The notes: generated by a model not told the origin, from the letters alone. A stretch of DNA of 64,000 bases from Firmicutes bacterium ADurb.Bin080 (GCA_002070965.1 MWEH01000095.1:6349-70348), one strand, 5' to 3'; numbered from the stretch's first letter, positions 2,126 to 62,941 are shown. Translations and numbers: made by a program.

Positions 2126-2298
2126 GGTCCGAGGTTCCTCTAAATATCATCCGGCAAAACATCACCTCTGTCCTTTGTGATTTGTCAGAGATTCCTCTAA
2201 ATGTCATCGGATATAATATCATCTCTGTCCTTTTTTCATTGGCCCGAGATTGCACTAAATGTCCCCCGATAAAATATCATCTCTGTCCTTTTTGTATT
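2126..2298. repeat. three tandem copies (57-58 bp period) spanning the stop codon of the SDR gene
   Basis: On the minus strand the units read KKDRDDILSGDI-TAG (the real gene end, stop 2255-2257), KKDRDDIISDDI-TAG (stop 2197-2199) and TKDRGDVLPDDI-TAG (stop 2140-2142). Confidence 0.9.
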
Positions 2299-3055
2299 CT
2301 TTGAATTTTTTCTTTTCTAAAGCCAAATAGATTTTTTTAATCAAAGGGCATATAGACATTAAAGCTTTTGAAAAAACAAAAATCGGTGATGGACGAACTT
2401 TCTTACACCCCCTCTCAACACCTCTTACAAATTTTTCAGCAACCGGTTTAACATCTTGCACTGGGAAAGGCTTTTTATATGGGATTGGACAAGATGTCTT
2501 AAAAAAATTAGTGTCTGTTGCTATAGGATACAAACAAGTAATCTGAATATTTTCTGGCTTTTCCATCATTATGGATTGTCTAACACCATTTAGGGCATAC
2601 TTCGTTGCTGAATATAAGGCAAATCCAGGCATAGCCATTTCCCCAATAGCAGACACTGTCATTCCAAATATTCCTTTTTTACCATCCAAATATTGCCTAT
2701 ATTTCTGATAGGAATAAATGGGTGATATTACGTTAGTATTAAATATATCTCTGATTCTTTCCCAACTAGCATAATTCATTTCTTCATAATATGCGTAACC
2801 TGCATTAGCAAAAAAGAAATCTATCCCTCCCATTTTATCTATAGCATAGCTGAACAAATCATCAACAGCCTTTTCGCTACTTACATCAACACTATATGGA
2901 ATGACCTTATCCGATTTAATTACTTCAAGCTGATCAGTTTCCTTATCTGCAGCCACAATCAAATTCCCTTCTTTTTTCATCAGTATCTTCATGACTGCAA
3001 GTCCAATTCCACTGTTAGCCCCAGTAACAATAATTTTCATGTTTTCAATTTTCAT
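2255..3055 (-). CDS. SDR family oxidoreductase
   Basis: N-terminal TGANSGIG Rossmann motif and YSATK catalytic motif. Start set at the ATG at 3055 (MKIENMKIIVTG), preceded by GAGGTG. Confidence 0.8.
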   Translation of the reverse strand: MKIENMKIIVTGANSGIGLAVMKILMKKEGNLIVAADKETDQLEVIKSDKVIPYSVDVSSEKAVDDLFSYAIDKMGGIDFFFANAGYAYYEEMNYASWERIRDIFNTNVISPIYSYQKYRQYLDGKKGIFGMTVSAIGEMAMPGFALYSATKYALNGVRQSIMMEKPENIQITCLYPIATDTNFFKTSCPIPYKKPFPVQDVKPVAEKFVRGVERGCKKVRPSPIFVFSKALMSICPLIKKIYLALEKKKFKEYKKDRDDILSGDI

Positions 3056-3080
3056 ATTCACCTCAATAATATTTCCATTA

Positions 3081-3106
3081 AAAAAAAGCGAGTAAAACCT
3101 ACTCGC
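3081..3106 (-). terminator. terminator after the lipase-like gene
   Basis: GCGAGTA / TACTCGC stem (3088-3094 / 3100-3106), followed on the minus strand by a T7 run (complement of 3081-3087). Confidence 0.65.
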
Positions 3107-3122
3107 TTCCTTTCTTTTAGAA

Positions 3123-4556
3123 TTAAGCTCTTGCTGGATACCATAATTTTTCAAGGGCATTGAAGCTATTTAGAACGGCTTCATCAAGGACCTCATATGA
3201 AATGGCTTCTGCAACATTCTCATAATCATAAAGAATTGCGTAATGGTCATGCCCCTCAAAATACTGGGTGTTTTCTGGGTCGAAATCTCCAACTGTTGCC
3301 GAAACTGAAAGTACAACGCCATCTCCCTTCAATGAATCTTCCATATGATCTAAAATTACATCACCAGTCATCGGATTTGTTACATAGTATATTTTATATC
3401 CACCAGCCTTTCCAGAACCGTTAATATATGTTGTGTCTACAAGTTTAGTAGAGAATATCTTGCTCCCATCCTTTTGAGTAACATACATTGCATCCCTTGA
3501 TTCAAGCCACTGTTCCATCGGAGGTCTTAAATCTCCCCCTTCTAATTTTGCCCAAGGCCTGGTGCAATAGAACTCCCAAAGTTCTTGTTGGCTTTCAAAG
3601 TCCATTCTTTCCCCATCTAGATATATTCCCGCAAGTTCCCCTTGAAATTCAGTATTGAAAACCTCATACGACGGTAATAATTGGTATGGAGTCCACATAT
3701 TTACAAGAGAAAGAAATTGGTTTGTAAATACTGAATCAATATTATTGGATAGTCCTTCTAAGGCGGAAATTCCCAATCCGCTAATCGCATCCTTAACCCC
3801 TGCAATCATCCCATTTACATTTTCAAGTATAGAAATACCCGCAACAGAGCCCAGAAGGGGAGAATGATAACTCACGAACTTAGATACTTTCTTCCTGTTC
3901 TTTTCGCTTTTTGCTAAGTAGGTTGCGACCACCGGCCCACCATTACTGTGAGCAGCCAATATTACCTCGGTGTATTTCATTTCATCTATATACTCTTCAA
4001 GCTTATCGGCATTATATCTGGTGTCTTTTCTAAAGTCATAGTTAAATATCTGAACATCATATACATCCCCATATCTATTATACAAGGATTCCCACATATC
4101 TTTTTGCGCATTAATAACCCCGTATCTCCATCTGCTCTGATCCGACCACGGAACCCTTTCAATAGTGGGAATTGTAGATGTACCATCCGGATTCATGGCT
4201 ATCATATTTAATAAACTATCCGGCTCTCCTACTCCTCCGTTAGCCATTATCTTTCCCAACTCTTCTTGGACCACTTTGTTTCTAATTAACCCTAAAACCC
4301 CTGCCAAATTAATACCATCTGCATTCATAACCGTAGAAAAAGAAACATTCTCTAGCCCTTCAAAATTATCCCAGATATAATCTCCAGTCTCAGTATCGTA
4401 CAAACCGCTTCCAAAAAGACCAGGTAAAATAATTAAAGCTCTTTTCTGATATGCGTAAGTCAAGTATGAGCCGCCAAAGAGTCCACCCAGCCCAAGCACA
4501 ACCGCTATAACCGCCGAAAGCACTATTAAAATTATCTTCTTTTTCCCAAATCCCAT
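3123..4556 (-). CDS. membrane-anchored alpha/beta hydrolase, LCAT/lipase-like
   Basis: N-terminal TM anchor (KKIILIVLSAVIAVVLGLGGLFGG), LILPGLFGSGLYD segment and nucleophile elbow AHSNGG (GxSxG type). RBS AAGGAG lies upstream of the ATG. Confidence 0.6.
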   Translation of the reverse strand: MGFGKKKIILIVLSAVIAVVLGLGGLFGGSYLTYAYQKRALIILPGLFGSGLYDTETGDYIWDNFEGLENVSFSTVMNADGINLAGVLGLIRNKVVQEELGKIMANGGVGEPDSLLNMIAMNPDGTSTIPTIERVPWSDQSRWRYGVINAQKDMWESLYNRYGDVYDVQIFNYDFRKDTRYNADKLEEYIDEMKYTEVILAAHSNGGPVVATYLAKSEKNRKKVSKFVSYHSPLLGSVAGISILENVNGMIAGVKDAISGLGISALEGLSNNIDSVFTNQFLSLVNMWTPYQLLPSYEVFNTEFQGELAGIYLDGERMDFESQQELWEFYCTRPWAKLEGGDLRPPMEQWLESRDAMYVTQKDGSKIFSTKLVDTTYINGSGKAGGYKIYYVTNPMTGDVILDHMEDSLKGDGVVLSVSATVGDFDPENTQYFEGHDHYAILYDYENVAEAISYEVLDEAVLNSFNALEKLWYPARA

Positions 4557-4753: not shown

Positions 4754-6409
4754 TTAAAACAATCCTTCAATGATTCCTTCATCACTGATCGACATTTTTA
4801 TTGCTCCGGGAGTTTTTGACAAGCCCGGCATCAGCAACATTGAACCTGCAAGTGCTACAATAAACTCGGCACCCGTACGAACCTCTATATCTCTAACATG
4901 AAAAGTAAATCCCTCGGGAGCACCAAGTATCCCCGAATCATCGGTAAGAGAGTATTGAGTTTTGGCTATGCAAACTGGATAATTCTCATACCCCGATCCT
5001 TTAAGCATATCAATTTTTATCATCGCTTCATCAGTGTATTCCACATCTTTTGCCCCATAGATTTCTTTGGCAATCTTTTCAATTTTTCCCTTAATGCTGT
5101 CCTCTAAGTTATATACATACCTTATATCGGACTTTTTTTCCGCCAATTTTACTACCTTTCGGGCTAGTTTTATAGACCCTTCACCACCCTTTGAAAATGC
5201 TTCTGATATTTCAAATTCAGCTCCCCTTTGCTCACAATAATCCCTTATAAATTGAATTTCCTTATCGGTATCTGACGCAAATCTGTTTAAAGCTACAATT
5301 ACGGGTAATCCTATTTTTTTAGAAAGGTTATCAATGTGTTTCCCTAAATTCACTATTCCCTTTTCTAGAAACTCCAGATTTTCTATACTTAAATTTTCTT
5401 TGATTCCTGACCCGTTATATTTCAGTGCTTTCACGCTGGCAACTATCACAGCTACTTTGGGGAACATTCCAAGAGCCCGGCACTTGATATCTATAAATTT
5501 TTCTGCTCCCAGATCTGCTCCGAAACCTGCCTCCGTCACTACATAATCAGCAATCGTAAGGGCAGTTTTTGTAGCTATAACGCTATTACATCCGTGTGCA
5601 ATATTTGCAAAAGGACCTCCATGTATTATTGCCGGGGTTCCCTCCAGAGTCTGAACTAAATTTGGTTTTAACGCCTCTTTTACCAATATAGTAACAGCTT
5701 CTTCAATTTTTAAATCCCCGCAAGTAACCGGCTGATTATCAATATTTCTTCCGATACAGCTGTTTTTCACCCTTCTTTTAAAGTCTTTTAGGTCTTTAGC
5801 TAAGCAGAAAATTGCCATCATTTGACTTGCTGCGGTAATATTGAATCCATCCCTTCTGGGAATTCCGTTTGGGCCCCCTCCTTCAGCAACAGAAACACTT
5901 CTGAGGGCTCGATCATTTAAATCAATACACCTCTTCCAGGTAATTTTCTCAGGATCAATTCTAAGTTCATTTCCCTGGGTCAAATGATTATCAATTATTG
6001 ATGAAACCAGATTGTTTGCGGTAGTAATGGCATGAAAATCCCCTGTAAAATGAAGGTTTATCTCCTCCATTGGGACCACTTGGGAGTATCCTCCGCCCGC
6101 AGCTCCTCCTTTTATTCCGAAAACCGGGCCTAAAGAGGGCTCTCTTAACGCAAGACAGGATTTTTTTCCAATTTTTCTAAGCCCATCGGCGAGACCTATT
6201 GCAATAGTAGTCTTTCCTTCCCCTTGAGCAGTGGGATTAATAGCAGTTACTAAAATTAGATTATCTGATTTTGGTTCGGCCTTTATATTCAGCTTTGCCT
6301 TATTTCTACCATATAAGTCAAAATCTTCTTCTTTCAAACCAAGCGAAAGAGCTATTTCGCGAATGGGTTTTACTTCTCTCTCCCGTGCAATTTCTATATC
6401 CGATTTCAT
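4754..6409 (-). CDS. fhs: formate--tetrahydrofolate ligase
   Basis: Full-length 551-aa product with the typical Fhs N-terminus (MKSDIEIA...KPI.EIA..LGL) and P-loop region PTAQGEGKTT. Confidence 0.95.
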   Translation of the reverse strand: MKSDIEIAREREVKPIREIALSLGLKEEDFDLYGRNKAKLNIKAEPKSDNLILVTAINPTAQGEGKTTIAIGLADGLRKIGKKSCLALREPSLGPVFGIKGGAAGGGYSQVVPMEEINLHFTGDFHAITTANNLVSSIIDNHLTQGNELRIDPEKITWKRCIDLNDRALRSVSVAEGGGPNGIPRRDGFNITAASQMMAIFCLAKDLKDFKRRVKNSCIGRNIDNQPVTCGDLKIEEAVTILVKEALKPNLVQTLEGTPAIIHGGPFANIAHGCNSVIATKTALTIADYVVTEAGFGADLGAEKFIDIKCRALGMFPKVAVIVASVKALKYNGSGIKENLSIENLEFLEKGIVNLGKHIDNLSKKIGLPVIVALNRFASDTDKEIQFIRDYCEQRGAEFEISEAFSKGGEGSIKLARKVVKLAEKKSDIRYVYNLEDSIKGKIEKIAKEIYGAKDVEYTDEAMIKIDMLKGSGYENYPVCIAKTQYSLTDDSGILGAPEGFTFHVRDIEVRTGAEFIVALAGSMLLMPGLSKTPGAIKMSISDEGIIEGLF

Positions 6410-7373: not shown

Positions 7374-7449
7374 TTACACCCTCCCGAGTAGAGCATGTTT
7401 TAATTATACTTTAATACACTAATTAAGTAAAGACTCAACTATCAGAAAT

Positions 7450-7535
7450 GAGCTAAAGAAATATCAAAAATTTAATCTGCTATCATAAGTGAGCTCACAC
7501 CAAATATGAAAAGTTTAATCCGCCATACTATCTTT
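7450..7535. repeat. two tandem copies (about 43 bp period) spanning the stop codon of the methyltransferase gene
   Basis: gagctaaagaaatatcaaaaatttaatctgctatcataagt versus gagctcacaccaaatatgaaaagtttaatccgccatactatc. Real stop at 7515-7517, copy stop triplet at 7472-7474. Confidence 0.75.
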
Positions 7536-8678: not shown

Positions 8679-8830
8679 AACAGAATGATTATATCACATA
8701 GCTGTCCCAGTTAATAACAACATACACTATCAAATATTTCGCATATTTATTTTTCCACAAGCATTTAATTCATCTTTTATATATTCCTCATGTTAATTTT
8801 TAGCCCCCTTTTGATTCATCCTCGGTTTAA

Positions 8831-8925
8831 GTATCAAGCACTGGGAGGCATTCCTTTCTTTACTCATTTGATTTATCTTATTTTTATGTATCAGCATTGT
8901 AAGGGCTGCCTTTCTTTACTCATTT
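8831..8925. repeat. two degenerate direct copies (about 57 bp period) in a divergent intergenic region
   Basis: gtatcaagcactgggaggcattcctttctttactcattt (8831-8869) versus gtatcagcattgtaagggctgcctttctttactcattt (8888-8925). Confidence 0.7.
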
Positions 8926-8984
8926 CCTTTTTGGTGATAATATTGTAACTGTTAAACAAAAAAATACTCTTAACCAGGAAAAAT

Positions 8985-12150: not shown

Positions 12151-14298
12151 TTGGCAAAAAAGAATGACAATATAATGAATTCTGACAATCCTAACGAGTC
12201 CAAGAATGACAATATCTTAAATCCCAGTGTTTCAGACCCCGAGTCAGAAAGTCCAATTTTGGATAATCTTCCATCCGAGACCCAAACAGATATTTCTATT
12301 CAAGACACAAGCGAGGAACCCAATGTTCTCTCTGATGTCATTTCTAACGAACCTGCTGAGTCCGCTGAAGAAAGCGTTGATTCTGACACCGAAATACCTC
12401 CTCTTCTGGCAAAACCTGAAGAGCCTGCTGAGACTATTGAAGAAAGCGTTGATTCTGACTCCGAAATACCTCCTCTTCCGGCAAGACCTGAAGAGCCTGA
12501 GGTTTTTGTTGAGGGCAACTCTGAAGATGAATCATCCGAAATCTCTGAAATTGAAGGTGAGGCCCTTTCTGAAATTGAGCAGATAGAATATGAGCTTGAA
12601 AAACTTGAAAAAGAGATTGTACAGTCCGAAATAGATTCGGAAGGCGATTTCATTCCTGAGACAGAGGAAGAAAAACAAACAATGGCTGAAATTGAGCTTC
12701 TGGAAGTTGCTGCCAAAAAACAAACTAAAGAAGCAGATAAACTAACCAAGGAAATAATTCCTGCTCCAGAAGATGCAGATATGGTTGAAACTTACGTTCC
12801 AGAGTTTCAGAGAGAGCCTGGGACTCCTGAAAAACCCGCGGACGATGATGAGGAAGATCCTACACCAAAACCAGTAGAAGAAGAAAGTGAGGATTTACAA
12901 GCAGAGCTTGAAAGAATCTACGAAACTGGAGTTGGGACTGGGCTGGATGAATGGGATAGAGAAATTCTTCTCCCCGTTTTTGAGAACAGACTCAGAATGA
13001 CAAAAAATTCTACAAAGCTTTCTTACTCAAAACTAAAAAATCAAATTTTATCATTTAAGGGAATCTCCGCATCTTTCCAAGGACCCATCGAAAATTTCAG
13101 ATACAATAAAAAAATTGTTTTCAGATTCGCGATTAAAGATGATTCGGTTCAACTTTATTGTGCCCTTGACCCAGAGTCCATAGACAACAATGTATATCCG
13201 CACAAAAAGGCTAAAGGCGAGCACGCAAAGGCGACAGCGACAATACTTACTATAAACGATGAAAATTCTCTTAGAAATGCTGGGGAAATCATCACATTAG
13301 TTGCTGCAAAAATCGGAACTGCTGAAAAAGAACATCATGTTCCTGTAGCCTTCGCTGAAAGATACCCTATTAATCCCAACGGAGTCCTTTTTGGACAAGA
13401 AAGCAAACCACCCATCGATGGACAATATGATAACGATGATGACTATGCTCCGATATCCGGGGAAATAATAAACGGGATTATCGAAGCTAAGTTCGGAAAA
13501 TCCAAACTTCAGGAAAGGAAGGAGTTAAAGGGCAAGGAAGTTCTTGACGATTTGAGACAAACGGCAAACACAATTAAAGCTGCAGTAGCGCTCACAGAGC
13601 CCGTAGTATACTTCTTTGACGCGGCTTTAAACAAAGAAAGTTCTATTGAATATTTAAACATCCAACAGCTCTTGAACGATAAGTTTTTGGGGAAAATTGT
13701 TCCTCAGGTTTTCTTTGCAGTTGCTGAAGGAAGTGACAGAATTGAAAAATTTAATTTCCTATCTCTGGAATTTGCAGTAGAACAAGCTAATGCTTATCCA
13801 AGTACCCGATTTGTACTTGCATTAAGCTGCAGATTACTTATCAGGGATGAAGTCTTTGAAAGGCTGCTAAGAAACGCAAAAACCCTTAATGACAATTTGG
13901 TACTTGCGTTTGATTGTGCTCTTTTAGAATCACTTGGGGATATGGGTCTACAAAAAATTCGTAGGCTCAGAAACGAAGCAGGTGTTATGATTATGATAGA
14001 TAATTCAGAAAATGCAGGAATGCGTGTCTTGACAGAATATGATTTTGAATATATCAGATTTGACAGCAGATTCTACGCCGGAGACAATGCGAAACAACGG
14101 TCCCATCTTGAGATGATGACTGGATATGCAAGATCCCAAAATATCAAGACTACTTCCATCAACGTTCTTACTTTAAAAGAGGCCCAAATAATGGTTGAAA
14201 GAGGGGTCGATGTAATTCAAGGACCAGCCGCTTCAGAGCCAAAAAGAATAGCTACGCTGGCAATGAAAGGTGTTAAAAAACTTCCTCTTGGGAGGTAA
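12151..14298 (+). CDS. acidic-repeat protein with C-terminal degenerate EAL-like domain
   Basis: TTG start after AAAGGGG. The N-terminal ~260 aa are D/E/S/P-rich with a 24-aa tandem repeat. The C-terminal ~240 aa follow the EAL-domain motif order (EYL.., P..FF.VAE.., IMIDNSENAG for DDFGTGYS, IRFDSRFY for LKIDRSF, ..GVDVIQGPAASEP for G.D..QGY.F..P), but most catalytic residues are replaced. Confidence 0.6.
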   Translation: MAKKNDNIMNSDNPNESKNDNILNPSVSDPESESPILDNLPSETQTDISIQDTSEEPNVLSDVISNEPAESAEESVDSDTEIPPLLAKPEEPAETIEESVDSDSEIPPLPARPEEPEVFVEGNSEDESSEISEIEGEALSEIEQIEYELEKLEKEIVQSEIDSEGDFIPETEEEKQTMAEIELLEVAAKKQTKEADKLTKEIIPAPEDADMVETYVPEFQREPGTPEKPADDDEEDPTPKPVEEESEDLQAELERIYETGVGTGLDEWDREILLPVFENRLRMTKNSTKLSYSKLKNQILSFKGISASFQGPIENFRYNKKIVFRFAIKDDSVQLYCALDPESIDNNVYPHKKAKGEHAKATATILTINDENSLRNAGEIITLVAAKIGTAEKEHHVPVAFAERYPINPNGVLFGQESKPPIDGQYDNDDDYAPISGEIINGIIEAKFGKSKLQERKELKGKEVLDDLRQTANTIKAAVALTEPVVYFFDAALNKESSIEYLNIQQLLNDKFLGKIVPQVFFAVAEGSDRIEKFNFLSLEFAVEQANAYPSTRFVLALSCRLLIRDEVFERLLRNAKTLNDNLVLAFDCALLESLGDMGLQKIRRLRNEAGVMIMIDNSENAGMRVLTEYDFEYIRFDSRFYAGDNAKQRSHLEMMTGYARSQNIKTTSINVLTLKEAQIMVERGVDVIQGPAASEPKRIATLAMKGVKKLPLGR
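12352..12495 (+). repeat. in-frame 72-bp coding tandem repeat (2 copies)
   Basis: PAESAEESVDSDTEIPPLLAKPEE / PAETIEESVDSDSEIPPLPARPEE. The nucleotide copies at 12352-12423 and 12424-12495 are nearly identical. Confidence 0.95.
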
Positions 14299-14466: not shown

Positions 14467-15495
14467 ATGGCAAAAAAAGACAATGTGGATAAAGAGGTAT
14501 TATCACCTCAGGAGCAGATGAAATCACGTCCAGCTCCGGATGCCCCGGTGGATAACAAGGGCACTTTAATCCGCAAAGAAAAACCAAAGAAGATGAAAGC
14601 TCGTGGAAAGAACATGGTGGAAAATACCGATGAACTATCCGGGAAATATGAGTATGTCATAAAGCACAAAAAAGTTGAAAAGGAAACAAAGAATCGTAGG
14701 TTCATAAGAATACTTCTAATCTTCCTTCTTTCCCTTCTAATCCTTGGGGGCGGACTATGGGGTGTCACCGCATTTATTGAGTACAACAATTTCCGTGTTG
14801 TTGTCGATAGACCCGGTCAAAATATTTTTGCAATCAGCCCTGCAAGAAGCCTTCAAAATACAACTGAAATTTATAACATCGATGGCCCAAGATATATGGA
14901 TAACATAACCCTTATGGGAATGGAAGACGTGATACTAGAAATCGAGGATTCTGATGGAGCAACCTCGAGGGACAACTTGATCGCTGCAACTTTTTATCTA
15001 ACAAATATCACCGATGATTCTAGGCGTTATAGAGAGGTTGTAGACATATCTGAAACTTCTCAAGGGCTCGAAGAAGCGATCCGAATTATGCTAATAAAGA
15101 GCACTTATAATGCTGACGGAACAGTCAAAAAACGTGTATGCAATGTATACGCTGCACCTCATTCTTTTGATGAGTTTGGGGTCCCAATACCCGAAGCTGT
15201 GGTTCCCTTGGCAACACCTTCTTATTACACCGGAGATGAGCTCAGACAGCTCGAAGGGCTTGGTCTTTCGGACTCAGAAGACTCGGAAGAATGGATGTCA
15301 ATACCCTTCCTTTCCTCAACTTTAGTCCTCGATCAAAACGGAGATTCTGAGGGCACTCCCGAAGACTACATTATCCCCCCAGGAGGCAAAGTGAAGTATA
15401 CACTTTTAATCTGGCTAGAGGGAAATGACAAGGACTGCATTGACGATAAACTCGGGGGCAGAATGAAACTTTCCTTGACCTTTAGCGAGGGTTAA
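14467..15495 (+). CDS. membrane-anchored TasA/TapA-like protein (paralog of the two downstream fibre-subunit candidates)
   Basis: ~75-aa basic cytoplasmic N-terminus, then a TM segment ending GGGLWGVTAFIEYNN (resembles SipW-type GGGTFAYFxD). The C-terminus YTLLIWLEGNDKDCIDDKLGGRMKLSLTFSEG shares the W-L-E-G...(L/V)xFx motif with ORFs 16616 and 17619. Confidence 0.5.
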   Translation: MAKKDNVDKEVLSPQEQMKSRPAPDAPVDNKGTLIRKEKPKKMKARGKNMVENTDELSGKYEYVIKHKKVEKETKNRRFIRILLIFLLSLLILGGGLWGVTAFIEYNNFRVVVDRPGQNIFAISPARSLQNTTEIYNIDGPRYMDNITLMGMEDVILEIEDSDGATSRDNLIAATFYLTNITDDSRRYREVVDISETSQGLEEAIRIMLIKSTYNADGTVKKRVCNVYAAPHSFDEFGVPIPEAVVPLATPSYYTGDELRQLEGLGLSDSEDSEEWMSIPFLSSTLVLDQNGDSEGTPEDYIIPPGGKVKYTLLIWLEGNDKDCIDDKLGGRMKLSLTFSEG

Positions 15496-15499
15496 AATT

Positions 15500-15600
15500 C
15501 TCAAAAAATCCCATTTTTTAAATTTTTAATATTTTCTGCACATCCACTCAAAAAATCCCATTTTAAATTTTTATATTTTCTGCACATTCACTCAAAAAAT
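15500..15600. repeat. about 2.3 near-identical tandem copies (44-47 bp) just downstream of ORF 14467..15495
   Basis: ctcaaaaaatcccattttttaaatttttaatattttctgcacatcca / ctcaaaaaatcccattttaaatttttatattttctgcacattca / ctcaaaaaatt... Confidence 0.9.
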
Positions 15601-16204
15601 TATTGCCAAACAATCCCAAATTTTTTTATTTCACTCAATAATCTCGGATTGCTTTTTTAACTATCTAAACAACAAATCCTTTTCGGTTTTTTCGCAAGCT
15701 TCTCCTTCATCCCCAATCTCCAATAATATTCTTTTTCCTCTTCCACTTTTACTTTCCCTCTCCCGGACCATAACAATAAAAAAGTAAGCACAATTTGTAT
15801 ATAATGATTTAAAAGAAACTAAAATCTTTTTCAATAGAGTTCAAAATTAGCTTAAGAAAATTTTCTGATCCATCATTCTTAGCCTCTTAAGTTAATACAA
15901 ATTAACAATAGAAACATCCTGCTCAATCAATTCCCGTAGAAACCTTTTTGCTTAGCACATAAGGTCAAGACAGTTAACCGATCCTATTGTTTCCACCCCT
16001 AACAGCCCCTACAAAAATACTTATTTTGGTAATTTGTCGTGAGATAAAAAAATAGTAAATGAACACTCAAGTTTCACAATTTCTTAATTGACTTAATCGC
16101 GCACGTGTATAATAATAAGACAGGAATTGAATTTTTAGCTTGAAATTTGTCACTTTACTCAACTAAACTAAAAAAGCTTAAAAATCAAAAACACGCGTAC
16201 ACTG

Positions 16205-16233
16205 TTGTGTCGAATATGTATACTTGTTATAAT
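16205..16233 (+). promoter_or_regulatory. sigma-70/SigA-type promoter candidate for the fibre-subunit operon
   Basis: TTGTGT (16205-16210), 17-nt spacer, then TATAAT (16228-16233), preceded by TGn (extended -10). It would give a ~375-nt leader before the ATG at 16616. Confidence 0.55.
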
Positions 16234-16410
16234 TACATTATGAAAGGAGCCCTTCACTTACACTCAATTTTTTCGGATGAGGCTCAAAAATCAAAAAATC
16301 TTTCTTACGAAGTGTTGCAAAACCCACACTTTCTTACATTGATTACAATACTTTTTTGTGGGATTCCCTATCAAATACTACTGCTGAGGCAGAGTATAAA
16401 AAATCCATAA

Positions 16411-16551
16411 CGGAGGTTGGCTATGGTAAACAAATCTTTTCGGTTAAGACGGTCAACTAGTAACGTTTCGTTACTGGTTCGGTTCTGTGAGGTAGATAGC
16501 TAGTACCGCACTTACCTAATTGGTAAACGTAACGTACATGGCCAACCACCG
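16411..16551 (+). promoter_or_regulatory. structured 5' leader element (candidate riboswitch or cis-regulatory RNA, class unknown)
   Basis: Closing helix CGG-A-GGTTGGCTATG (16411-16425) pairs with CATGGCCAACC-A-CCG (16537-16551): 14 bp with one G.U and one A.A. It encloses hairpins CTAGTAACG-TTT-CGTTACTGG (16457-16477) and GTGAGGTA..TACCGCAC (16487-16511). Confidence 0.45.
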
Positions 16552-16615
16552 AATATAACCGCGAAACAGATCGCACAAAACAAAATTAAAAAATTCTAAT
16601 TTATAGGAGAAAAAA

Positions 16616-21182: not shown

Positions 21183-23168
21183 ATGGCTCAATCACAGTAT
21201 GATGAGATTATTTTCCAGATAAATAATCTCCTTAAACAGGAGAAGATTTATCCATTGTACATGGGGTCAATTGCCGAAGGCAAAAACGACTATAAAATCA
21301 GCCAGGTTTACACAAAAAAGAACTATGATGACAGCTGGATAACTACCCTTGAAGAGTGTATTGTTCCTCTAGACACCATAGTAAGAAACCCCAGAAAGTT
21401 CATTATTATCGAAGAAGATATAGTCGATGTATCTTTAGCTAGATCCATTTCTATTGAATCAGTCAAGCATTTGGCTCAACATACCAACTTGATAGCAGCC
21501 GTTAAGAAAGATGGCTCAATTATCCCTTCAAAAATTCTTAATACCAGCAAGGAAGAGAGCTTTGAGATATATGAAAACCGTTTTATATACACCCTCTTAT
21601 TAAAGGTTAACGAGTTCGTTGAAAGAAGAACCGGGATTGTAAAAAAAGCATTGATGCAAGCTGGGGCACTTGGGGTCGACATCAAGTCAAATTTTAAAAT
21701 TAATGACTTCAGCGTAGACTTCACAATGAGCAATTCAGCAAACTTCCCTTTCGAGGCAGCCTTCAAGAAACAAGGAGACGAACACTCTGACCTTGAAAGA
21801 ATTGCATATATTACTCGTATTTACCAGGACTTCTTGTCCTCTCCATTTGCAAAAGAGCTAAAAAACTGCGCACTTGTTCGTCCCCCTATTACTCGTACTA
21901 ACGTAATTCTAAAGGATCCAAACTTTAAAAAAGCCCTAACTTTATGGCAGTTCGTTGAAAGTGCGGAAAAAATGGACTTCCGAATAGATACAGTAACTGA
22001 GGCGACTGATTTAAACGCCACCCTTACAGAAAAATATCGTGGTATCGTTTTCTTAAATACTGTTCTTCTTCAATCTATTGCCGAAACCAGACAAGAAAAT
22101 GAATCCTTAGAAAAAACGCTTAAACAAGACCAGGTTTTAGCAGATGATTATGTTACGAAAAATATAGATGACTTTGTCCCGGATGATTTCCCGCAGCTTA
22201 AGATGGATCTGAACGAAGTCAGACGAATATATTATCGTGTTCCAGGGCAAAAAACCCTTAGTTTAACAGAAATTGCAAAAGTTAATGCAGCTTTAGACAG
22301 GGTATACAGACAATATAGAATTAACAAAGCCAGAGATGACAGTATCACCAAAAAGAGATTAATTGCTAAACAGCTTGAAGAAGAAGCTCAAGCTAAACGA
22401 CTAGCTCTTAGGGAAGCTAGAGACATAGAAAGAGCAAAGAAACAAGAGGAAGCAAGGAGACGACTTGAACAAAGAAAGCTTGAAGCCGAAAGAAGAGCTG
22501 CACTTGAACGTGCTGAACAAGAGAGATTAGAAGCCGAAAGAAGAGCTGAAGAAGAGAGAATTCTTTTAGAGGCAGAAAAAGTACGTCTTGAGCAAGAAAG
22601 AAAGCGTCAAGAAGAAGAAAAACGAATTGAAATAGAAAAACAAGCTGCCGAAGAAGCGCATAAACTGAAAATTATTGAAGAACAAAAGATGGCCGCGCGT
22701 ATCCAGCAGGAAATGGAAGAATATAAAGCACGTCTTGAATCTGAAGAAAAGAGAATTGAGCTTGAACTGATTGAGAGACAGGAAAACTATTGGAAGAAGC
22801 AAAAAGAACTTCAGTTAAGATTACAAGTTGAAGATGATAAGACAAAGATATTTGAAAAGGAAACCTTCTATTTCTCGAAAGTTAAAAAAGATGAGAAGAA
22901 CAAAATGACAAAGCTTGAAATGCTTCGCAATACCCTCAGAAATGCGATGATCGTGGAGCATTACCAGGAAATTGAGAGCATATTAGAGTCTGCAAAAGAA
23001 CATTATTCCGAAGAACAATTAAAGGAAATCCGCGCCGAAATAAAAGCCACTGAAAAAGCTGAAGAAAAGAAAAGAAAAAAGAAAGAAAATAAAGGGCGCA
23101 AAAACGGACTTCAAAAGCTGACTGGGTTGTTTTCAAAGAAGGATAAAGATATAATAGAGAATAAATAA
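21183..23168 (+). CDS. McrC-N-terminal-like (DUF2357-like) protein fused to a long E/K/R-rich coiled coil; no nuclease domain recognised
   Basis: The N-terminal ~330 aa contain EESFEIYENRFIYTLLLKVNEFVERR (the ENRF-type motif of McrC-like partners). aa ~385-560 are almost pure E/K/R/A/L/Q heptad-like sequence (LEAERRAALERAEQERLEAERRAEEERILLEAEKVRLEQERKRQEEEKR..). Basic K-rich tail. Confidence 0.5.
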   Translation: MAQSQYDEIIFQINNLLKQEKIYPLYMGSIAEGKNDYKISQVYTKKNYDDSWITTLEECIVPLDTIVRNPRKFIIIEEDIVDVSLARSISIESVKHLAQHTNLIAAVKKDGSIIPSKILNTSKEESFEIYENRFIYTLLLKVNEFVERRTGIVKKALMQAGALGVDIKSNFKINDFSVDFTMSNSANFPFEAAFKKQGDEHSDLERIAYITRIYQDFLSSPFAKELKNCALVRPPITRTNVILKDPNFKKALTLWQFVESAEKMDFRIDTVTEATDLNATLTEKYRGIVFLNTVLLQSIAETRQENESLEKTLKQDQVLADDYVTKNIDDFVPDDFPQLKMDLNEVRRIYYRVPGQKTLSLTEIAKVNAALDRVYRQYRINKARDDSITKKRLIAKQLEEEAQAKRLALREARDIERAKKQEEARRRLEQRKLEAERRAALERAEQERLEAERRAEEERILLEAEKVRLEQERKRQEEEKRIEIEKQAAEEAHKLKIIEEQKMAARIQQEMEEYKARLESEEKRIELELIERQENYWKKQKELQLRLQVEDDKTKIFEKETFYFSKVKKDEKNKMTKLEMLRNTLRNAMIVEHYQEIESILESAKEHYSEEQLKEIRAEIKATEKAEEKKRKKKENKGRKNGLQKLTGLFSKKDKDIIENK

Positions 23169-32140: not shown

Positions 32141-32200
32141 AAAACTCCTATACTAGTATATTTTATCATATATTCGCGTATGCGCACATATACCATGATT

Positions 32201-34281: not shown

Positions 34282-34365
34282 GTTATTCTCCTTAAACTGT
34301 TTTTCCCTGTATTATTTAATAATTATCCCTAACCCTACTTTTCTTCAGGTAACAAATTTGCAATT

Positions 34366-40739: not shown

Positions 40740-40832
40740 ATTCCGCCTTTCTGTTCTATGTTTACGCTTCTCGCGCGCATACTAGTAATTATATATTAGG
40801 GTGATATGGGTGTCAAACATATAAAAAAATCA

Positions 40833-40925
40833 TGGAAGTTCCCAATAGAAATGTATGTAAAACTTGCTTTGAAAATTTCCTGGAACTTCCCAATACAAAT
40901 GTATATAAATCCTGCTTTAAGAAAT
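40833..40925. repeat. two direct copies (48 bp period) in the promoter region of the surface-protein gene
   Basis: tggaagttcccaatagaaatgtatgtaaaacttgctttgaaaat (40833-40876) versus tggaacttcccaatacaaatgtatataaatcctgctttaagaaat (40881-40925). Confidence 0.8.
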
Positions 40926-41019
40926 CTATGGTGTTCGTTTTTTTACATAAAGGCTTTGGGTTTTAACCAAGAAAATACTTTAACAAAAGTCAAAATTGGC
41001 TTACAGAAAAATAGCTATA

Positions 41020-41721
41020 TTACAACATAATGTATGTTGCTGCGATGCAACATGCGGGCCCAACAAAAGTGAGTACGTGAAATACTGTATGGGTATATTT
41101 CTTCCCTATTTTATAAAAAATAGCACCTATAAGACAAAAAATTACGCCTGCTAAATACCACATTTTGGCATCAAAAGGGATAAAATCCTTGCTTACCAAA
41201 TAAGCTATTACAAGGAATGCTCCTGCAACGAAGTCGTTTATCAAAGCAACAATTCTAAAAGTTTTAAAATTAACGATACACCCAATATAGTTAACCGCGG
41301 CCAGCCCATAACACAAACCCAAAATTATATAATTAACTGTGCTTGGAGGGGTCGCCATAACCACTGCAGCACCACAGGAAATAACAACTAATATGACACT
41401 TGCGTGATCAAATTTCCTGATTTTTCTTTTCAAATCAGTGTTTTTTATCGCATGATAGGTAGCTGAAGTCGCATAAAGGATTATGAAACCTAAACATATT
41501 AAGATTCCAAGTACTACACCACTTGCAGTAGTTGCTTTAGAAAGAGTAAAAATAAGTGCGATTATCCCAAGAAAAATCCCCGCTCCATGGGTTATTGCAT
41601 TCAGTAATTCCTCAAGCGGAGTATAGTAAACAAGCTCTAGCGAATTATATTCCTCTTTACGTTCCTTAATTTCCTCGTCGCTAGGATTCCAATTAATTTT
41701 TAATTTCTCTGTTTGGTTCAT
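41020..41721 (-). CDS. hemolysin III / PAQR family membrane protein
   Basis: E.LNAITHG.G motif and seven TM helices with conserved His residues (YH..., HVL). Start at the ATG at 41721 after AAGGGAAAG. Confidence 0.85.
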   Translation of the reverse strand: MNQTEKLKINWNPSDEEIKERKEEYNSLELVYYTPLEELLNAITHGAGIFLGIIALIFTLSKATTASGVVLGILICLGFIILYATSATYHAIKNTDLKRKIRKFDHASVILVVISCGAAVVMATPPSTVNYIILGLCYGLAAVNYIGCIVNFKTFRIVALINDFVAGAFLVIAYLVSKDFIPFDAKMWYLAGVIFCLIGAIFYKIGKKYTHTVFHVLTFVGPACCIAATYIML

Positions 41722-56389: not shown

Positions 56390-57619
56390 TTAATCAAAAT
56401 CGCCACCATATGGGTTCCAGTTAAAATCATCTTCTTCGGCCTCTCTTTCTCTTCTAAAAACCGTTCTCCCTTCAAGATTTTCTGAAGCAGGGGTAAAAAT
56501 ATCACTGCTCAAATCTATAATAGGATTGTAGTCAAAAGTTTCCTGAATATTCAAAATGAAATTAATCTCAAAAACATCCTTGACCCCATCAGTTGAAGTA
56601 ACGAAAGTATGAAGTAAACTCAATATGCTATTTACCTCGCTCTCGCTAGCTATCTCCAGTTCAGATGCAATTAGCTTAATGTCTGCATCTGGAACTCTTA
56701 TCGTAATCTTGCTCTCATATCCTGAAGAGAGGAGATAACCTTCTGCATTTGCACTTCCTGTGTATACAGTATCCCCAATTGTAATCCAGCCTTTTGCCAT
56801 TTCGTAATATGATGAATAAACATTTTGAACAAATTCCAGCATCTCTTCATCATCTAGATTAAGAATATACTCCCCATAAACTTCATTTACTTCAGCTAGA
56901 ATCATATCGAGCAAACTTCCCCCGGGAATAGTATATTGAAAGTTAAACTCTCCAGTCCCTATGTTAATTTCATCTCCCAAAGAATTAGTTAATACTGAAA
57001 AGTCAACCGTGGGAACTATAGGTTTCATAACTGTTTCTAAAATGTCTATTTCTTTAATATAATTAAAATCATTACTCTCCTGCTCAGCCAAAATATCGTA
57101 AAAGCCAGCTCCAATAAACAGACTGTATTCAGTCTCATCCAAGGTATATTTGTAATCAGGAACAACTCCATCCGCGCATACATCTGCTCTTCCGTTTATG
57201 TTCCCGTTTGAATAGCCAATTTCAAAAACACCTTTAACCTCGCCTTTAATATATTTACCGAAGTCTTCCGGAGCGCGGGTCAATGCCATATCTACAATTG
57301 CTTTTAATGCAGTTGATAACTTAAATTCGGAGGTGCCAATTGTCCCTTTTATGAGTATATCGCCTTCCTTTTGGACCCTTTCCATCGCGATTTCTTGGGT
57401 TATCCTCATAGGGTTACCTTGGACATCATATATGACTACAGATAGTCCTACAGTGCTATTTATTTTCTTGTCCTGGGTCTGTTCAGCCTTTGTAATAGCA
57501 GCAGCAAGCGACACATTTTCAATTACTTCCTCGGGGGTGCACCCAGGGAGAAAAACACTCCCAACTATAACCATTGCGACTAACAAAAATATACCAATTA
57601 ATCTATAAAATTTTGTCAT
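56390..57619 (-). CDS. putative lipoprotein, co-oriented immediately upstream of the giant RND gene
   Basis: Signal peptide ending in a lipobox-like FLPGC. Acidic mature protein without recognisable motifs. Confidence 0.55.
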   Translation of the reverse strand: MTKFYRLIGIFLLVAMVIVGSVFLPGCTPEEVIENVSLAAAITKAEQTQDKKINSTVGLSVVIYDVQGNPMRITQEIAMERVQKEGDILIKGTIGTSEFKLSTALKAIVDMALTRAPEDFGKYIKGEVKGVFEIGYSNGNINGRADVCADGVVPDYKYTLDETEYSLFIGAGFYDILAEQESNDFNYIKEIDILETVMKPIVPTVDFSVLTNSLGDEINIGTGEFNFQYTIPGGSLLDMILAEVNEVYGEYILNLDDEEMLEFVQNVYSSYYEMAKGWITIGDTVYTGSANAEGYLLSSGYESKITIRVPDADIKLIASELEIASESEVNSILSLLHTFVTSTDGVKDVFEINFILNIQETFDYNPIIDLSSDIFTPASENLEGRTVFRREREAEEDDFNWNPYGGDFD

Positions 57620-57893
57620 AATTCTCCGTTAAGAATATAAAAAATATAAAAAATTGAAATAATCACCCATTATATATATATAAGTAATTTTTAGTCTAAC
57701 ATAGAGAGTATATCAAATCAATATATACAAATAAAATTTTTTCAGCTAAAAACCAATAGAAGAAAACTCTCCCATTTCTTGAATGAAATTTTCCATTTTT
57801 TCTATGTAACTATGGGGGAAGTCCTTCAATTTGCCGTCAAAAAAAAGTTTCTTAGCTCTCGAAAATAGATAAATTTTTAGTAGAAAATCCAGT

Positions 57894-59930: not shown

Positions 59931-59955
59931 ACTACATCTCCTTGATAATAATTTT

Positions 59956-60075
59956 TTAACCAAGAACAATTTTCAAAACCATTGCCCGTTGTACTAATCC
60001 TTTTTTATCCGAAACAATTTACTAACAAGAAAAGTTTTCATAAACCATTGCCTGTTGTCTTAAAACTTTTTATAC
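59956..60075. repeat. two tandem copies (about 66 bp period) spanning the stop codon of fucI
   Basis: On the minus strand: YKKF-TAA (real stop 60060-60062) and IKKD-TAG (59994-59996). Each is followed by ..acaac(a/g)ggcaatggttt..gaaaa..tt(c)ttg(g)tta.. Confidence 0.8.
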
Positions 60076-61859
60076 ATCGCTCCGTATGCTTTGCATGCAC
60101 GATAGTCCTGCCCTTCTTTATCCATGCCAAACGCATTCCAGCATGCCGGACGGAAAATGTTTCCTTCGTCTACATTGTGCATACATACGGGAATTCTTAA
60201 CATTGAGCACATTGTGATTAAGTCTGCCCCTATGTGTCCGTATGAGATTGCCCCATGATTTGCGCCCCAATTATTCATTACATCATATGCTGTTTTGAAG
60301 GCACCTTCTCCTGTAACCCTAGGTGCAAACCAAGTGCATGGCCATGTATAGTCTGTTCTCTTCCAAAGCTTGTCTGTCACTTCATCGGGTAATTTTATAG
60401 TCCAGCCCTCAGCAATTTGCATTACAGGGCCCAAGCCTTTGATAATATTTAACCGGATCATAGTGCAAGGCATTTCCGCTTTGGTCACAAACCGGCTGGA
60501 GTACCCGCCACCGCGGAAATATCCCAAGTCAGCATAAGGCCAAGAGGTTGCTTTCATGCATGCATCTATGTCCTTATCTGTCATTTCCCACCACTTTTTC
60601 ATAATTGCGTTGCCGCCTGAATCTTTTACTTCGCCGCAAGCATCCACACATGCAGCCCCGCTATTAATCAAGTGAATAAATCCGTCCGATTCTTTTGCTT
60701 TTCCCTTCAGAACATGGCCGGTTACCCTCTTAACTGCATCCCCCGACCAATATGTTCTGACATCGGCAAAGATTTGAGCTCTTGAAGTAAGAAGCTTTCC
60801 AAATAGCATACATAATCCATTTAAGCTATCATTTTCCGTGGCAAGGATATACGGCTCCCTTGCCCCATTCCAATCAAACGAGGAATTAAGTATGCTTTCA
60901 GGAAAATCACAGTTAGGGTAAAAGTCTGTCCATTGTCTTTGACCCTGGAAGCCCGCGGCAATTGCGTTATGTCCTACTGCTTCTTCCTCGGCTCCTACAG
61001 GGAGATTCATGTTTCCGTTCATCAGATCCTTAATGATACATGCCATCTTTGCAGTGAACTCCCAGTCTTTTTCCTTTTCCTCTTTACTTTTTTGCATCTT
61101 AGCAGGATTCTTATCAATGTCCGGCTTGCATTTTGTTTTTATCCAATTAAGTGCCTTATTATATTCCTTTTCGTCATAAATACCTTTTTCCATTCTTCTT
61201 ATTACTTCGACTTCATCAACGCTTTCCACCCTCATCCCGAGATAATCTTCAAATAAAGCCGAGTCAACAATAGAACCAGCTATGCCCATACAAATGGAAC
61301 CTATTTGTAGATATGATTTTCCACGCATGGTAGCAACCGCAACTGCACTGCGCGCAAACCTTAGAATCTTTTCTGATACATCGTTTGGAATTGTGGTGTC
61401 GTCCAAATCCTGAACATCTCGTCCATAAATGCCGAAAGCTGGCAAACCTTTCTGAGCATGGCCAGCGAGAACTGCTGCCAAATATACCGCTCCTGGACGT
61501 TCAGTGCCATTAAACCCCCACACGGCTTTTATTGTGTTTGGGTCCATATCCATGGTTTCTGATCCATAACACCAACAAGGAGTAACCGTCAAAGTAATAG
61601 CTACCCCAGCTTTTTTGAATTTATCTTCGCATGCTGCAGCTTCAGCAACTCTCCCTATTGTCGTATCGGCAATTATTACCTTAACTTTTTCTCCGTTAGA
61701 ATAAAAAACGTTATTTTCTATGAGTTTAGCCGCATTTTTAGCCATGTTCATGGTCTGTACTTCCAAGCTTTCTCTCACCTTCAGGGGACCACGTCTCCCA
61801 TCTATAGTGGGTCTTATGCCTATTAAAGGATAATCACCAATCAATCTATTCTCTGCCAT
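60060..61859 (-). CDS. fucI: L-fucose isomerase
   Basis: 599 aa. The N-terminus ..[23 protein letters not shown] and the overall length match FucI. Confidence 0.9.
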
Positions 61860-61901
61860 ATTAGTATCTCCTCATTATATTTTCTAAACACTGTTTAATA
61901 C

Positions 61902-62023
61902 TTATTAAAAAACTCCTTCCAGGGACTTTAAATTCCAAAGTTTAGCACAAGGCATTTAATAATTTATTTTAAGACTCCCTCGAGAGGGGTTAAATTCCAT
62001 AGTTTTGCAAGACCTTTAATGAT
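61902..62023. repeat. two tandem copies (62 bp period): the last ~20 codons plus stop of rhaD are duplicated immediately downstream
   Basis: ttattttaagactccctcgagaggggttaaattccatagttttgcaagacctttaatgat (gene end) versus ttattaaaaaactccttccagggactttaaattccaaagtttagcacaaggcatttaataat. Both begin with the TAA complement. Confidence 0.85.
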
Positions 62024-62773
62024 ATCATCCGGAATAATGTTTATTGCTTTCCCAAGTGTCAACATATATATTTGTGCTGTTTTTTCCACTGTTTCAATCA
62101 GTCCAAAAGCCTCATCCATCGTTGCACCTGTTCCGTATATCCCGTGATTTGTCCACACTACCAGGCGGAATTTTTTTATTTTCTCAGCAGTTGCTATCCC
62201 TATTTCATTTGTTCCGCATATCATACAGGGTAATATTCCTACACCATCCGGGAATACTATTACTGCTTCTGTGTTTGACTGCCAAAGCTTGTGTGTGAAA
62301 TCTTTTTCATCCAGAGGGCATACTGTATTCATAGCTATTGTATAGGTGGGGTGGGTATGCATCACAATACGATGTTTTTTATCAACTTCCAGCCTGGAAA
62401 TATGACTCATCATATGTGTTGGAAACTCGGAAGTAAATTTTCCTCCATCCTTGAAACCCCATAATAGTTCGGCAGTGGTTCCGTCAGTCCCTATACGAAC
62501 AATGCCGAGATTTGTCTCTGGATCCTTTTCCACATTTTTAAAATATTTTCCGGTACCTGTTACTATGAAGATTCTTCCAATGAGCTTCTCTGCAGAAAAG
62601 CTGGTAGGAATTTTGCGTAATACCCTTTTCAAGTCGAGATATTCGCTAACTTCTTTTTCCTCAAGCAGATAACTAATATTACCGCCATTTCGCTCATCCC
62701 ATCCAAGCCGATACATATTCGCAGTTGCTTCGCACATTTCCCGCACAAAGGGTGCATTGATAATATCTTTCAT
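61964..62773 (-). CDS. rhaD: rhamnulose-1-phosphate aldolase (class II aldolase)
   Basis: The N-terminal ..LGWDERNGGNIS.. segment is nearly identical in pattern to E. coli RhaD (KGWDERNGGNLT). 269 aa. Confidence 0.85.
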   Translation of the reverse strand: MKDIINAPFVREMCEATANMYRLGWDERNGGNISYLLEEKEVSEYLDLKRVLRKIPTSFSAEKLIGRIFIVTGTGKYFKNVEKDPETNLGIVRIGTDGTTAELLWGFKDGGKFTSEFPTHMMSHISRLEVDKKHRIVMHTHPTYTIAMNTVCPLDEKDFTHKLWQSNTEAVIVFPDGVGILPCMICGTNEIGIATAEKIKKFRLVVWTNHGIYGTGATMDEAFGLIETVEKTAQIYMLTLGKAINIIPDDIIKGLAKLWNLTPLEGVLK

Positions 62774-62823
62774 TTGTTATTTCTCCCAGTTTTTACTTGT
62801 GTTATTATTTTACTTCTATTAGG

Positions 62824-62941
62824 TTATTATCGCAAACATCCAATATTAACCATTTATCGAACCAATCATACTTCCTTTAGTTTATTCCCGCAAACTTTCT
62901 AAACTAACCATTGTTTGAACCAATCATACTTCCTTAATGTC
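62824..62941. repeat. two tandem copies (58 bp period) spanning the stop codon of rhaB
   Basis: ..taaccatttatcgaaccaatcatacttccttta versus ..taaccattgtttgaaccaatcatacttccttaatg. KEV-TGA is present in both (real stop 62924-62926, copy 62866-62868). Confidence 0.85.

Follow-up and report, generated by a model that had tools for sequence, protein, structure and literature searches.

Seven genes in the window, the 64 kb stretch of the Firmicutes bacterium ADurb.Bin080 genome (uncultured Clostridia) that was analyzed, end inside short tandem arrays: genes for an SDR, an RlmL-type methyltransferase and a uxuB-like SDR, together with kdgK, fucI, rhaD and rhaB (Table 1). Approximately 30 kb of a sister species (74–80% DNA identity) was examined alongside. 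Ten array loci had been listed in the initial annotation, and every one was recovered with TRF, a repeat search and our own gapless scan as a tandem array of 2–3 copies, with units of 43–66 bp and 70–92% identity; a stop codon lies inside the array at seven of the ten. Beyond these loci, one weak start-spanning array (the only one of its kind in the window) and two in-frame coding arrays were found. Head-to-tail periods measured by TRF were 41–72 nt, at 1.9–3.2 copies. Gene callers predicted spurious small ORFs within the arrays.

Table 1. Tandem arrays and related repeats in the 64 kb window.
Feature	Position	Strand	Unit and copies	Relation to genes
SDR gene array	2123–2298	−	58 nt x 3.1	stop TAG at 2255
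RlmL-type methyltransferase array	7439–7526	−	43 nt x 2.1	across TAA stop
Methyltransferase/cation-efflux divergent promoter region array	8810–8930	no strand	56 nt x 2.1	no gene end inside
In-frame repeat, EAL-domain protein gene	12344–12499	+	72 nt (24 aa) x 2.2	
Array after 342-aa hypothetical gene	15500–15600	+	44–47 nt x 2.2	
In-frame coding repeats, 661-aa gene	22432–22645	+	36–48 nt	
uxuB-like SDR gene array	32193–32318	−	57 nt x 2.2	begins ~10 nt ahead of TAG stop
Dispersed decayed kdgK-tail copy (p = 0.0015 vs shuffles)	34300–34340	−		between uxaC and uxuA
kdgK array	35812–35928	−	50 nt x 2.3	across TAA stop
HlyIII spacer array	40822–40931	−	48 nt x 2.3	in 280-nt spacer, HlyIII gene to 724-aa gene
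Weak start-spanning array	57604–57688	−	41 nt x 2.0, 70% matches	start codon of 409-aa gene
fucI array	59947–60071	−	66 nt x 1.9	across TAA stop; copy 2 has TAG
rhaD array	61894–62020	−	62 nt x 2.1	across TAA stop; bounded by ATTAAA
rhaB array	62811–62940	−	58 nt x 2.2	across TGA stop

The SDR unit comprises the last ~12 codons, the TAG stop and ~19 nt of downstream sequence, and the array is placed between the stop (2255) and a terminator hairpin (2078–2104). This hairpin, outside the array, was the only clear terminator; no intrinsic terminator was found within the arrays. The methyltransferase array lies within a 141-nt spacer ahead of a TrpR-like gene and its units are bordered by the direct repeat GATAG; the 43-nt array described there was confirmed, and a third copy proved very weak. 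At kdgK, where three tandem copies had been reported, there are 2.3, and an additional copy is dispersed beyond uxaC at ~34300–34340, so that uxaC is flanked by copies of the kdgK tail. The fucI array stops just short of the ribosome-binding site of GH4, which is the following gene, and the array following the 342-aa hypothetical gene starts 5 nt past its stop, with the direct repeat CTCAAAAAAT at its bounds. In both copies of the rhaB unit, an ATG overlapping the TGA stop (ATGA) opens a 7-codon ORF.

Units were unrelated across loci. All-against-all scores matched those of random window segments, and no consensus shared between loci was found (best inter-locus local scores of 20–29, versus a random 99th percentile of 24 and maximum of 40); a dispersed repeat family was rejected on these grounds. 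No dispersed copies were found by blastn-short except the kdgK-tail copy near uxaC. Similarity spans the full unit with mismatches evenly spread, and a CRISPR-like array was rejected because the whole unit is similar and alternation of a repeat with unrelated spacers is absent. Boundary repeats were visible (CTCAAAAAAT, ATTAAA, GATAG and AAAAAGGAC), and six of ten arrays extend 9–17 nt into a partial further copy, where an old truncated copy is indistinguishable from founding microhomology after decay. From gene copy to downstream copy, 54 G/C to A/T substitutions were counted versus 29 in the reverse direction, and the base carried by the downstream copy at mismatches was A in 43 cases, T in 40, G in 24 and C in 20. 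Copies differ from one another by 10–30%, the same order as the ~15–19% of four-fold sites segregating among strain haplotypes, and no recent identical copy pair was found within the window.

Array density was ~11–14 times that in 0.85–2.3 Mb of other genomes (13–14 arrays per 64 kb window versus 0.18–0.47 per 10 kb). Background DNA was taken from distant Clostridia matched by FucI search and from FTHFS relatives, which were at most 59% identical among the metagenome matches listed. The GC-matched background held 0.18 arrays per 10 kb versus 2.0 in the window (Poisson p ~3e-10), and shuffled sequence gave 0–3 hits, every one short-period. Array sequence makes up 1,108 of 7,684 intergenic bases (14% of the window’s intergenic DNA). 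All 11 non-protein arrays are mostly non-coding, versus 1.25 expected under random placement (non-coding DNA being 12% of the window). Enrichment at gene 3’ ends, a check proposed in the initial annotation, was seen within the window: seven arrays span a stop, versus 2.6–3 expected (p = 0.012), and stop-spanning exceeds start-spanning by 7:1 (p = 0.035). Each downstream copy had been said to keep a stop triplet in register; a triplet is kept in eight of nine clear copies, marginally above the prediction from decay at ~80% identity (p ~0.04). This retention and the stop-over-start bias are slightly stronger than a purely neutral filter requires. All seven stop-spanning cases do lie on the minus strand, as had been stated, and this is uninformative because 35 of the 47 genes lie there (p = 0.13). 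Unit size falls at 56–58 nt in five of eleven arrays, a cluster not predicted by simple slippage.

Strains differ at some of the arrays. The SDR array has three or four units depending on the strain and differs by ~9% between strains, versus ~2% for the SDR gene. The second rhaD copy was present in five independent assemblies and missing from 15 other same-species contigs examined. It is 24% diverged, yet missing in strains that are 96–98% identical; error-prone duplication at rhaD was considered and set aside as unneeded, the two-copy allele being carried on an rhaD haplotype with 5.6% divergence of its own. Copy number was invariant at rhaB, where the array was ~99% identical across all strains examined, and at fucI, where the array was found in all strains examined. 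Derivation of the rhaB unit from a deleted rhaA was rejected, since its alignment to the rhaA tails of relatives was insignificant (p = 0.07–0.5).

None of the window’s arrays is common to the sister species. There, the kdgK tail and the HlyIII spacer are single-copy, the uxuB-like spacer contains unrelated 19-nt arrays instead (~6 units in contig L199 and ~3 in L200), and no alignment with the window species was obtained for the spacers examined. The sister species has arrays of its own in other intergenic regions: across an esterase stop (64 nt x 3), at 3493–3606 (56 nt), at 5118–5238 (43 nt, two of the copies being nearly identical) and across a GFO start codon. Because divergence between copies resembles four-fold variation among strains and the examined spacers cannot be aligned to the sister species, steady birth and decay of arrays fits the data.

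The arrays are probably locus-specific bacterial minisatellites, generated by slippage-type duplication at a high rate, with selection confining the survivors to intergenic DNA and the 3’ ends of genes. A frequent 40–70 bp tandem duplication surviving where neutral was one of two proposals in the initial annotation, and it is borne out by the locus-specific units, the copy-number variation among strains, the decay toward A+T, the confinement of all non-protein arrays to mostly non-coding DNA and the occurrence of different arrays at different intergenic sites in the sister species. An array would be founded when replication slippage or template switching duplicates 40–66 bp lying between short direct repeats. 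Units are then added or removed by unequal exchange, as the copy-number differences between strains show, and copies free of coding constraint drift to A+T, as the substitution counts show. The placement statistics suggest that selection purges duplications that would disturb either the frame of a gene or its 5’ control sequences. A stop-spanning duplication would leave the protein unchanged and lengthen only the spacer or 3’ UTR, and survivors would therefore accumulate in intergenic DNA and across stops; in-frame copies would persist as well in tolerant proteins. The EAL-gene repeat is probably a product of the same process, preserved where the coding sequence tolerates it. A high rate holds across the clade, since both species are about equally dense in arrays and the arrays differ between them.

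A defect or peculiarity of lagging-strand flap processing or of template-switch avoidance is one possibility for the cause. Mutants with defective flap endonuclease (yeast rad27; E. coli polA 5’-nuclease mutants) have a duplication mutator effect, in which segments of tens of bp flanked by short direct repeats are duplicated. Short direct repeats are likewise present at most array edges here, a resemblance that offers a candidate lead to the cause of the high rate. In a broader and rather doubtful proposal, a clade-specific replication or repair peculiarity (weak flap processing, or template switching over a fixed ssDNA length) would make microhomology-bounded duplication of 40–66 bp the main route of intergenic turnover, and gene-tail arrays would then act as substrates for recombination by which genes are gained and lost. 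Template switching over a fixed length would fit the 56–58 nt unit cluster, and the position of uxaC between kdgK-tail copies hints at the role in gene gain and loss.

The second proposal of the initial annotation was that the copies are functional post-stop elements kept by selection (RNA signals in the 3’ UTR or between cistrons, or sites for protein binding, tuning termination, mRNA stability or translational coupling), and we consider this unlikely. It would account for stop-spanning placement above expectation and for stop triplets being mostly kept, and the ATGA overlap and 7-codon ORF of the rhaB unit recall the coupled ORFs described for MIRUs (PMC12548453). Near-invariance among strains is also seen in the fucI-GH4 and rhaB-rhaD spacers; the former has 2 differences in 129 nt, and the coding stretches bordering it are 4–5% different. 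At fucI-GH4, constraint is a possible reason, and so are separate recombination tracts, since in contigs L094 and L095 a break falls at the fucI end. Per-strain maps showed a population that is near-clonal and mosaic with a few hypervariable genes, and near-clonal segments and mosaic tract boundaries largely explain the invariance. The same population structure confounds a test of purifying selection on the extra copies, in which arrays initially seemed to have about a tenth of the polymorphism of four-fold sites, before all spacers of a second region turned out to be invariant; the test was not relied on, and no clear sign of selective constraint on the arrays was found. There were zero Rfam matches at the gathering threshold and fold z-scores were −1.0 to +1.2 in 10 of 11 (whole range −2.2 to +1.2), for which reasons a structured RNA was rejected. 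No motif is common to different loci. Further evidence against function is that the SDR array has outpaced its own gene and gained or lost a whole unit, that the second rhaD copy is dispensable in most strains and that no array is conserved in the sister species.

Less probable again is an origin as insertion scars, either long target-site duplications of excised elements or products of homology-facilitated illegitimate recombination that joined imported and resident gene ends, with copies differing from birth. In its favor, the uxaC gene lies between kdgK-tail units and is missing at the corresponding site in the sister species, and the second rhaD copy is linked to a divergent rhaD haplotype. 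A TnpB/IS605-type gene just upstream of rhaB is also present or absent by strain, and recombination tracts frequently end close to gene ends. The downstream rhaD copy, however, is ~75% identical to the single-copy allele, and it is not the resident tail because it is no nearer to that allele than to the adjacent copy. No element remnants were found between copies, and IS200/IS605 elements are not known to make target duplications. Slippage, and not a single insertion, fits arrays with three or four copies and the 19-nt arrays, which reach six copies, and the two near-identical adjacent units in L200 represent duplication in place.

Two further explanations can be dismissed with near certainty. 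DGR template/variable repeats, or other error-prone copying aimed at gene 3’ ends, share with the arrays a diverged second copy of a gene 3’ end close downstream, but the substitution spectrum effectively refutes them, with each of the 12 substitution types represented and mismatches involving all base pairs with no restriction to the adenines of one copy. In addition, the units (43–66 nt) are shorter and tandem, the targets are housekeeping enzymes, and no reverse transcriptase was present in Pfam matches (20 window proteins, and genes recorded at same-species loci). The window comes from a MAG contig, and its repeats are not assembly artefacts because independent same-species assemblies carry them: the same arrays were recovered in contigs from separate samples and assemblers (JGI, ENA, NCBI and Logan assemblies), and copy identities of 70–92% are unlike assembly errors.

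Locus-specific minisatellites thus remain the preferred reading, and they have close counterparts. Bacterial minisatellites/VNTRs (MLVA typing; ETR and QUB loci of Mycobacterium tuberculosis) are similarly built of head-to-tail units of tens of bp with locus-specific sequence, are mostly intergenic or at gene ends, and vary in copy number between strains. They are thought to originate by slipped-strand mispairing or unequal exchange. The arrays described here differ in that copies are few (2–4) and old (70–92% identity) and in their very high density, 14% of intergenic DNA; in E. coli variable segments, only ~18 non-PU minisatellite loci were counted (PMC2884548). MIRUs share ~50–100 bp tandem units in operon spacers that abut gene boundaries, and in MIRUs the ORF inside a unit is coupled to its neighboring gene with a spacing of −4 nt (PMC12548453), to which the ATGA overlap of the rhaB unit is similar. 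MIRUs are, however, a single dispersed and apparently mobile family with a common consensus that inserts at start codons, whereas the units here are unrelated between loci, copied from the local gene tail and favor stop codons. REP/BIME, BOX and Correia-type repeats are also short, located in operon spacers and sometimes tandem, but form genome-wide palindromic families, whereas these arrays have no common sequence or folding signal. The statement in the initial annotation that the feature was undescribed was therefore too strong, as intergenic minisatellites/VNTRs of 40–100 bp, some abutting gene ends (MIRUs, PMC12548453), are already known. The arrays are a dense example of this kind and look like ordinary products of replication slippage, not a new functional element; the unusual part is their density and the 7:1 stop-over-start bias.

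The finding indicates no new molecular system. In practical terms, the arrays can mislead gene callers, and in this anaerobic-digester organism they also provide markers for strain typing. Should the same density extend over a whole genome of a few Mb, several hundred arrays would be expected, with a duplicated tail on ~15% of genes. The lineage would then offer a natural case study of a biased indel process that builds and renews intergenic DNA, and would also show selection shaping the persistence of its products, at stops far more than at starts.

The initial annotation reported recurrent tandem duplications at gene ends, and this observation was confirmed. Arrays at every locus that it listed were recovered by TRF (default and permissive settings), a repeat finder and a gapless period scan, and their copies were plainly visible once set out on the coding strand (full copies, 75–86% pairwise identity). 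Seven arrays took in the end of the gene upstream, with its stop codon and 10–50 nt of coding tail. Shuffled window sequence gave 0–3 matches, every one of short period. The arrays are real sequence, not assembly artefacts: separate samples, in contigs from JGI, ENA, NCBI and Logan, carried them too. The short ORFs of 74 aa and 60 aa called on top of arrays are probably spurious calls due to the repeats.

Locations of arrays and associated features (window coordinates unless a related contig, L, is named)
Feature	Location	Description
Stop-spanning arrays (n = 7)		SDR, RlmL-type methyltransferase, uxuB-like SDR, kdgK, fucI, rhaD, rhaB (gene identities by Pfam)
Spacer-only arrays (n = 3)	8810-8930; 15500-15600; 40822-40931	
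Weak start-spanning array	57604-57688	Permissive TRF
In-frame coding arrays	12344-12499; 22432-22645	Permissive TRF
Sister-species array		64-nt unit x3, spans esterase gene stop; one copy in window orthologue
Sister-species array		56-nt pair, after 724-aa gene
Sister-species array		43-nt unit, two near-identical units, before kdgK
Sister-species arrays	L199 1235-1454; L200 8439-8634	19-nt units, between uxuB and next gene
Small ORFs over arrays	40806-41030 (+); L186 1728-1952; L200 5118-5300	
Terminator stem	2078-2104	
LCAT/lipase-like gene	3123-4556	
Formate-tetrahydrofolate ligase	4754-6409	
342-aa hypothetical gene	14467-15495	
Region after 342-aa gene	15496-16615	~1.1 kb
uxaC	34282-35757	
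Sister-species site lacking uxaC	L200 6345-6397	
rhaB-rhaD-fucI	60060-63964	
TnpB/IS605 OrfB-type gene	L091 2435-3721; L092 6981-8267	

Array density in the window exceeds that of the other genomes compared. The gapless scan gave 1.56 arrays per 10 kb in the window vs 0.19 for a 1.29 Mb set of loci from other Clostridia, and permissive TRF gave 2.19 vs 0.47 in a 2.31 Mb background. For periods of 43–72 nt, 11 arrays were found in the 64 kb window vs 29 in the same 2.31 Mb; with the background restricted to 32–43% G+C, the rates were 2.03 and 0.18 per 10 kb, respectively (Poisson p about 3e-10). Array sequence made up 1,108 of the 7,684 non-coding window bases. The window (G+C 36–41%, GC skew negative across most of its length) is contained in the 74,483-nt contig JAKJBP010000004.1 of GCA_022706925.1, a metagenome-assembled Clostridia genome, and proteins of the same species are labelled as 'Clostridiaceae/Clostridiales/Clostridia bacterium' MAGs. 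Same-species contigs retrieved with its formate-tetrahydrofolate ligase all had an identical copy of that enzyme; relatives in a metagenome scan reached at best 52–59% identity among the matches listed, and from these low values the lineage may be phylogenetically isolated.

Contigs L199 and L200 of a sister species (GCA_964570825.1; syntenic with the window, 74–80% DNA identity) contained none of the window arrays, and the kdgK tail and HlyIII spacer were each single-copy there. The sister species carried arrays of its own at similar density (about 2 per 10 kb), which indicates that the duplication process runs throughout the clade, is still active and acts on each locus independently. In one of its 19-nt arrays, the repeated sequence takes in the ribosome-binding site and start region of the gene that follows, and the 19-nt copy number was about six in L199 vs about three in L200.

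Within the species (contigs 95–100% identical to the window), the rhaB and fucI arrays were nearly unchanged and copy number varied at two loci, rhaD and SDR. The second rhaD copy (64 nt) was shared by the window and contigs L092–L095, which come from four other samples, and was missing from the 15 other same-species contigs examined, giving a rhaD-fucI spacer of 104 nt where present vs 40 nt where missing. Since the two-copy allele lies on a rhaD haplotype itself 5.6% diverged from the single-copy haplotype, the 24% divergence of the second copy needs no unusual mechanism. The SDR array had three units in the window vs four in L189 and L196, with numerous substitutions among units. Gene order at the rhamnose locus was rhaB-rhaD-fucI without rhaA, and rhaB-rhaA-rhaD in other Clostridia with similar RhaD proteins; the rhaB-rhaD spacer, tested as a rhaA remnant, gave no significant match. 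Just past the window end, upstream of rhaB, the window's strain group carried a TnpB/IS605 OrfB-type gene, and strains without it had other genes at that site. The LCAT/lipase-like gene (up to 40 differences per 100 nt) and the 342-aa gene (about 20) were hypervariable between otherwise near-identical strains, with 0 differences in their flanking genes, a pattern suggestive of either replaced alleles or diversifying selection. The region after the 342-aa gene had neither an ORF of at least 100 aa nor an Rfam match; the sole ORF called there in strain contigs was 36 aa.

Of the two explanations in the initial annotation, a mutational process whose products survive where neutral was supported and is the probable one. 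Six of the ten arrays ran 9–17 nt into a further partial copy, and direct repeats lay at unit boundaries (CTCAAAAAAT at 15500, ATTAAA at rhaD, GATAG at the methyltransferase); AAAAAGGAC began each SDR unit and also occurred in the nearby terminator stem. Such features would be expected if short direct repeats had mediated slippage or template switching and unequal exchange had then acted on the arrays, and decayed, truncated older copies would look alike. Non-protein arrays lay mostly in non-coding DNA (11/11 vs 1.25 expected); given that placement, seven spanned a stop, vs 24–27% expected (p=0.012). Stop-spanning arrays outnumbered start-spanning arrays 7:1 in the window (p=0.035), and with the sister species added there were 8 arrays across stops, 2 across starts and 5 internal ones. 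Duplication across a stop would leave the protein intact, whereas duplication across a start would put a short ORF in front of the gene, together with a decoy ribosome-binding site, so a selective filter would account for the stop bias. The reported restriction of stop-spanning arrays to the minus strand was not significant (p=0.13), as that strand carries 35 of the 47 window genes. A stop triplet, described as kept in every downstream copy, was retained in 8/9; the excess was marginal (p about 0.04), and A+T-biased decay favours its persistence.

The other explanation, a functional post-stop element, is very unlikely. In its favour, the extra rhaB and fucI copies had 1–2 segregating sites per 113 nt vs 19% at four-fold sites. 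This low diversity was not trusted as a sign of constraint, given a near-clonal mosaic population: on per-strain maps, divergence lay only within recombination tracts and in a small number of hypervariable genes, and all spacers at 2.3–16.4 kb were invariant, with or without repeats. In the divergent strain L201, the 8810-8930 array differed by 3.3%, ordinary spacers by 6–10% and flanking genes by 2–4%; between strains, the SDR array differed by ~9% vs ~2% for its gene. Only the fucI-GH4 spacer hints at constraint (2 differences in 129 nt; 4–5% in adjoining coding stretches; two flanking tracts separable in L094 and L095). No Rfam match at gathering score was obtained anywhere in the window, and sense-strand array transcripts folded no better than shuffles (z -2.2 to +1.2, mostly near zero). 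Downstream copies showed net G/C to A/T drift (54 vs 29 reverse), the behaviour of relaxed sequence in an A+T-rich genome. A diversity-generating retroelement (DGR) was ruled out, mismatches between gene and downstream copies falling across all base pairs and not being adenine-specific. Units of different loci had no sequence relation, which ruled out a MIRU-, REP- or BOX-like dispersed family.

The kdgK-tail unit had a fourth copy, now decayed, between uxaC and uxuA (p=0.0015 vs shuffles), so that uxaC, which lies between kdgK and uxuA, is flanked on both sides by such copies. The sister species lacks uxaC at the corresponding site, and its kdgK-uxuA spacer is the counterpart of the uxaC-uxuA spacer. 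Two histories would account for this: insertion of uxaC into an existing array, or its loss from the sister species through inter-repeat recombination. This context is the sole hint of a role for arrays in the gain or loss of genes.

The arrays had the head-to-tail structure and strain-variable copy number that define bacterial minisatellites/VNTRs, with a probable origin by slippage, and failed the defining features tested for CRISPR-like arrays, structured RNAs, DGRs and families of the MIRU type. Gene boundaries inside operons are also where MIRUs occur (PMC12548453), and among variable segments minisatellites form a recognised minor class (PMC2884548). The present arrays are notable for their density, for copies that are few and deeply decayed, and for their bias towards stop codons. 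They are a dense further example of bacterial minisatellites, and their significance would grow if the high duplication rate were traced to a specific cause.
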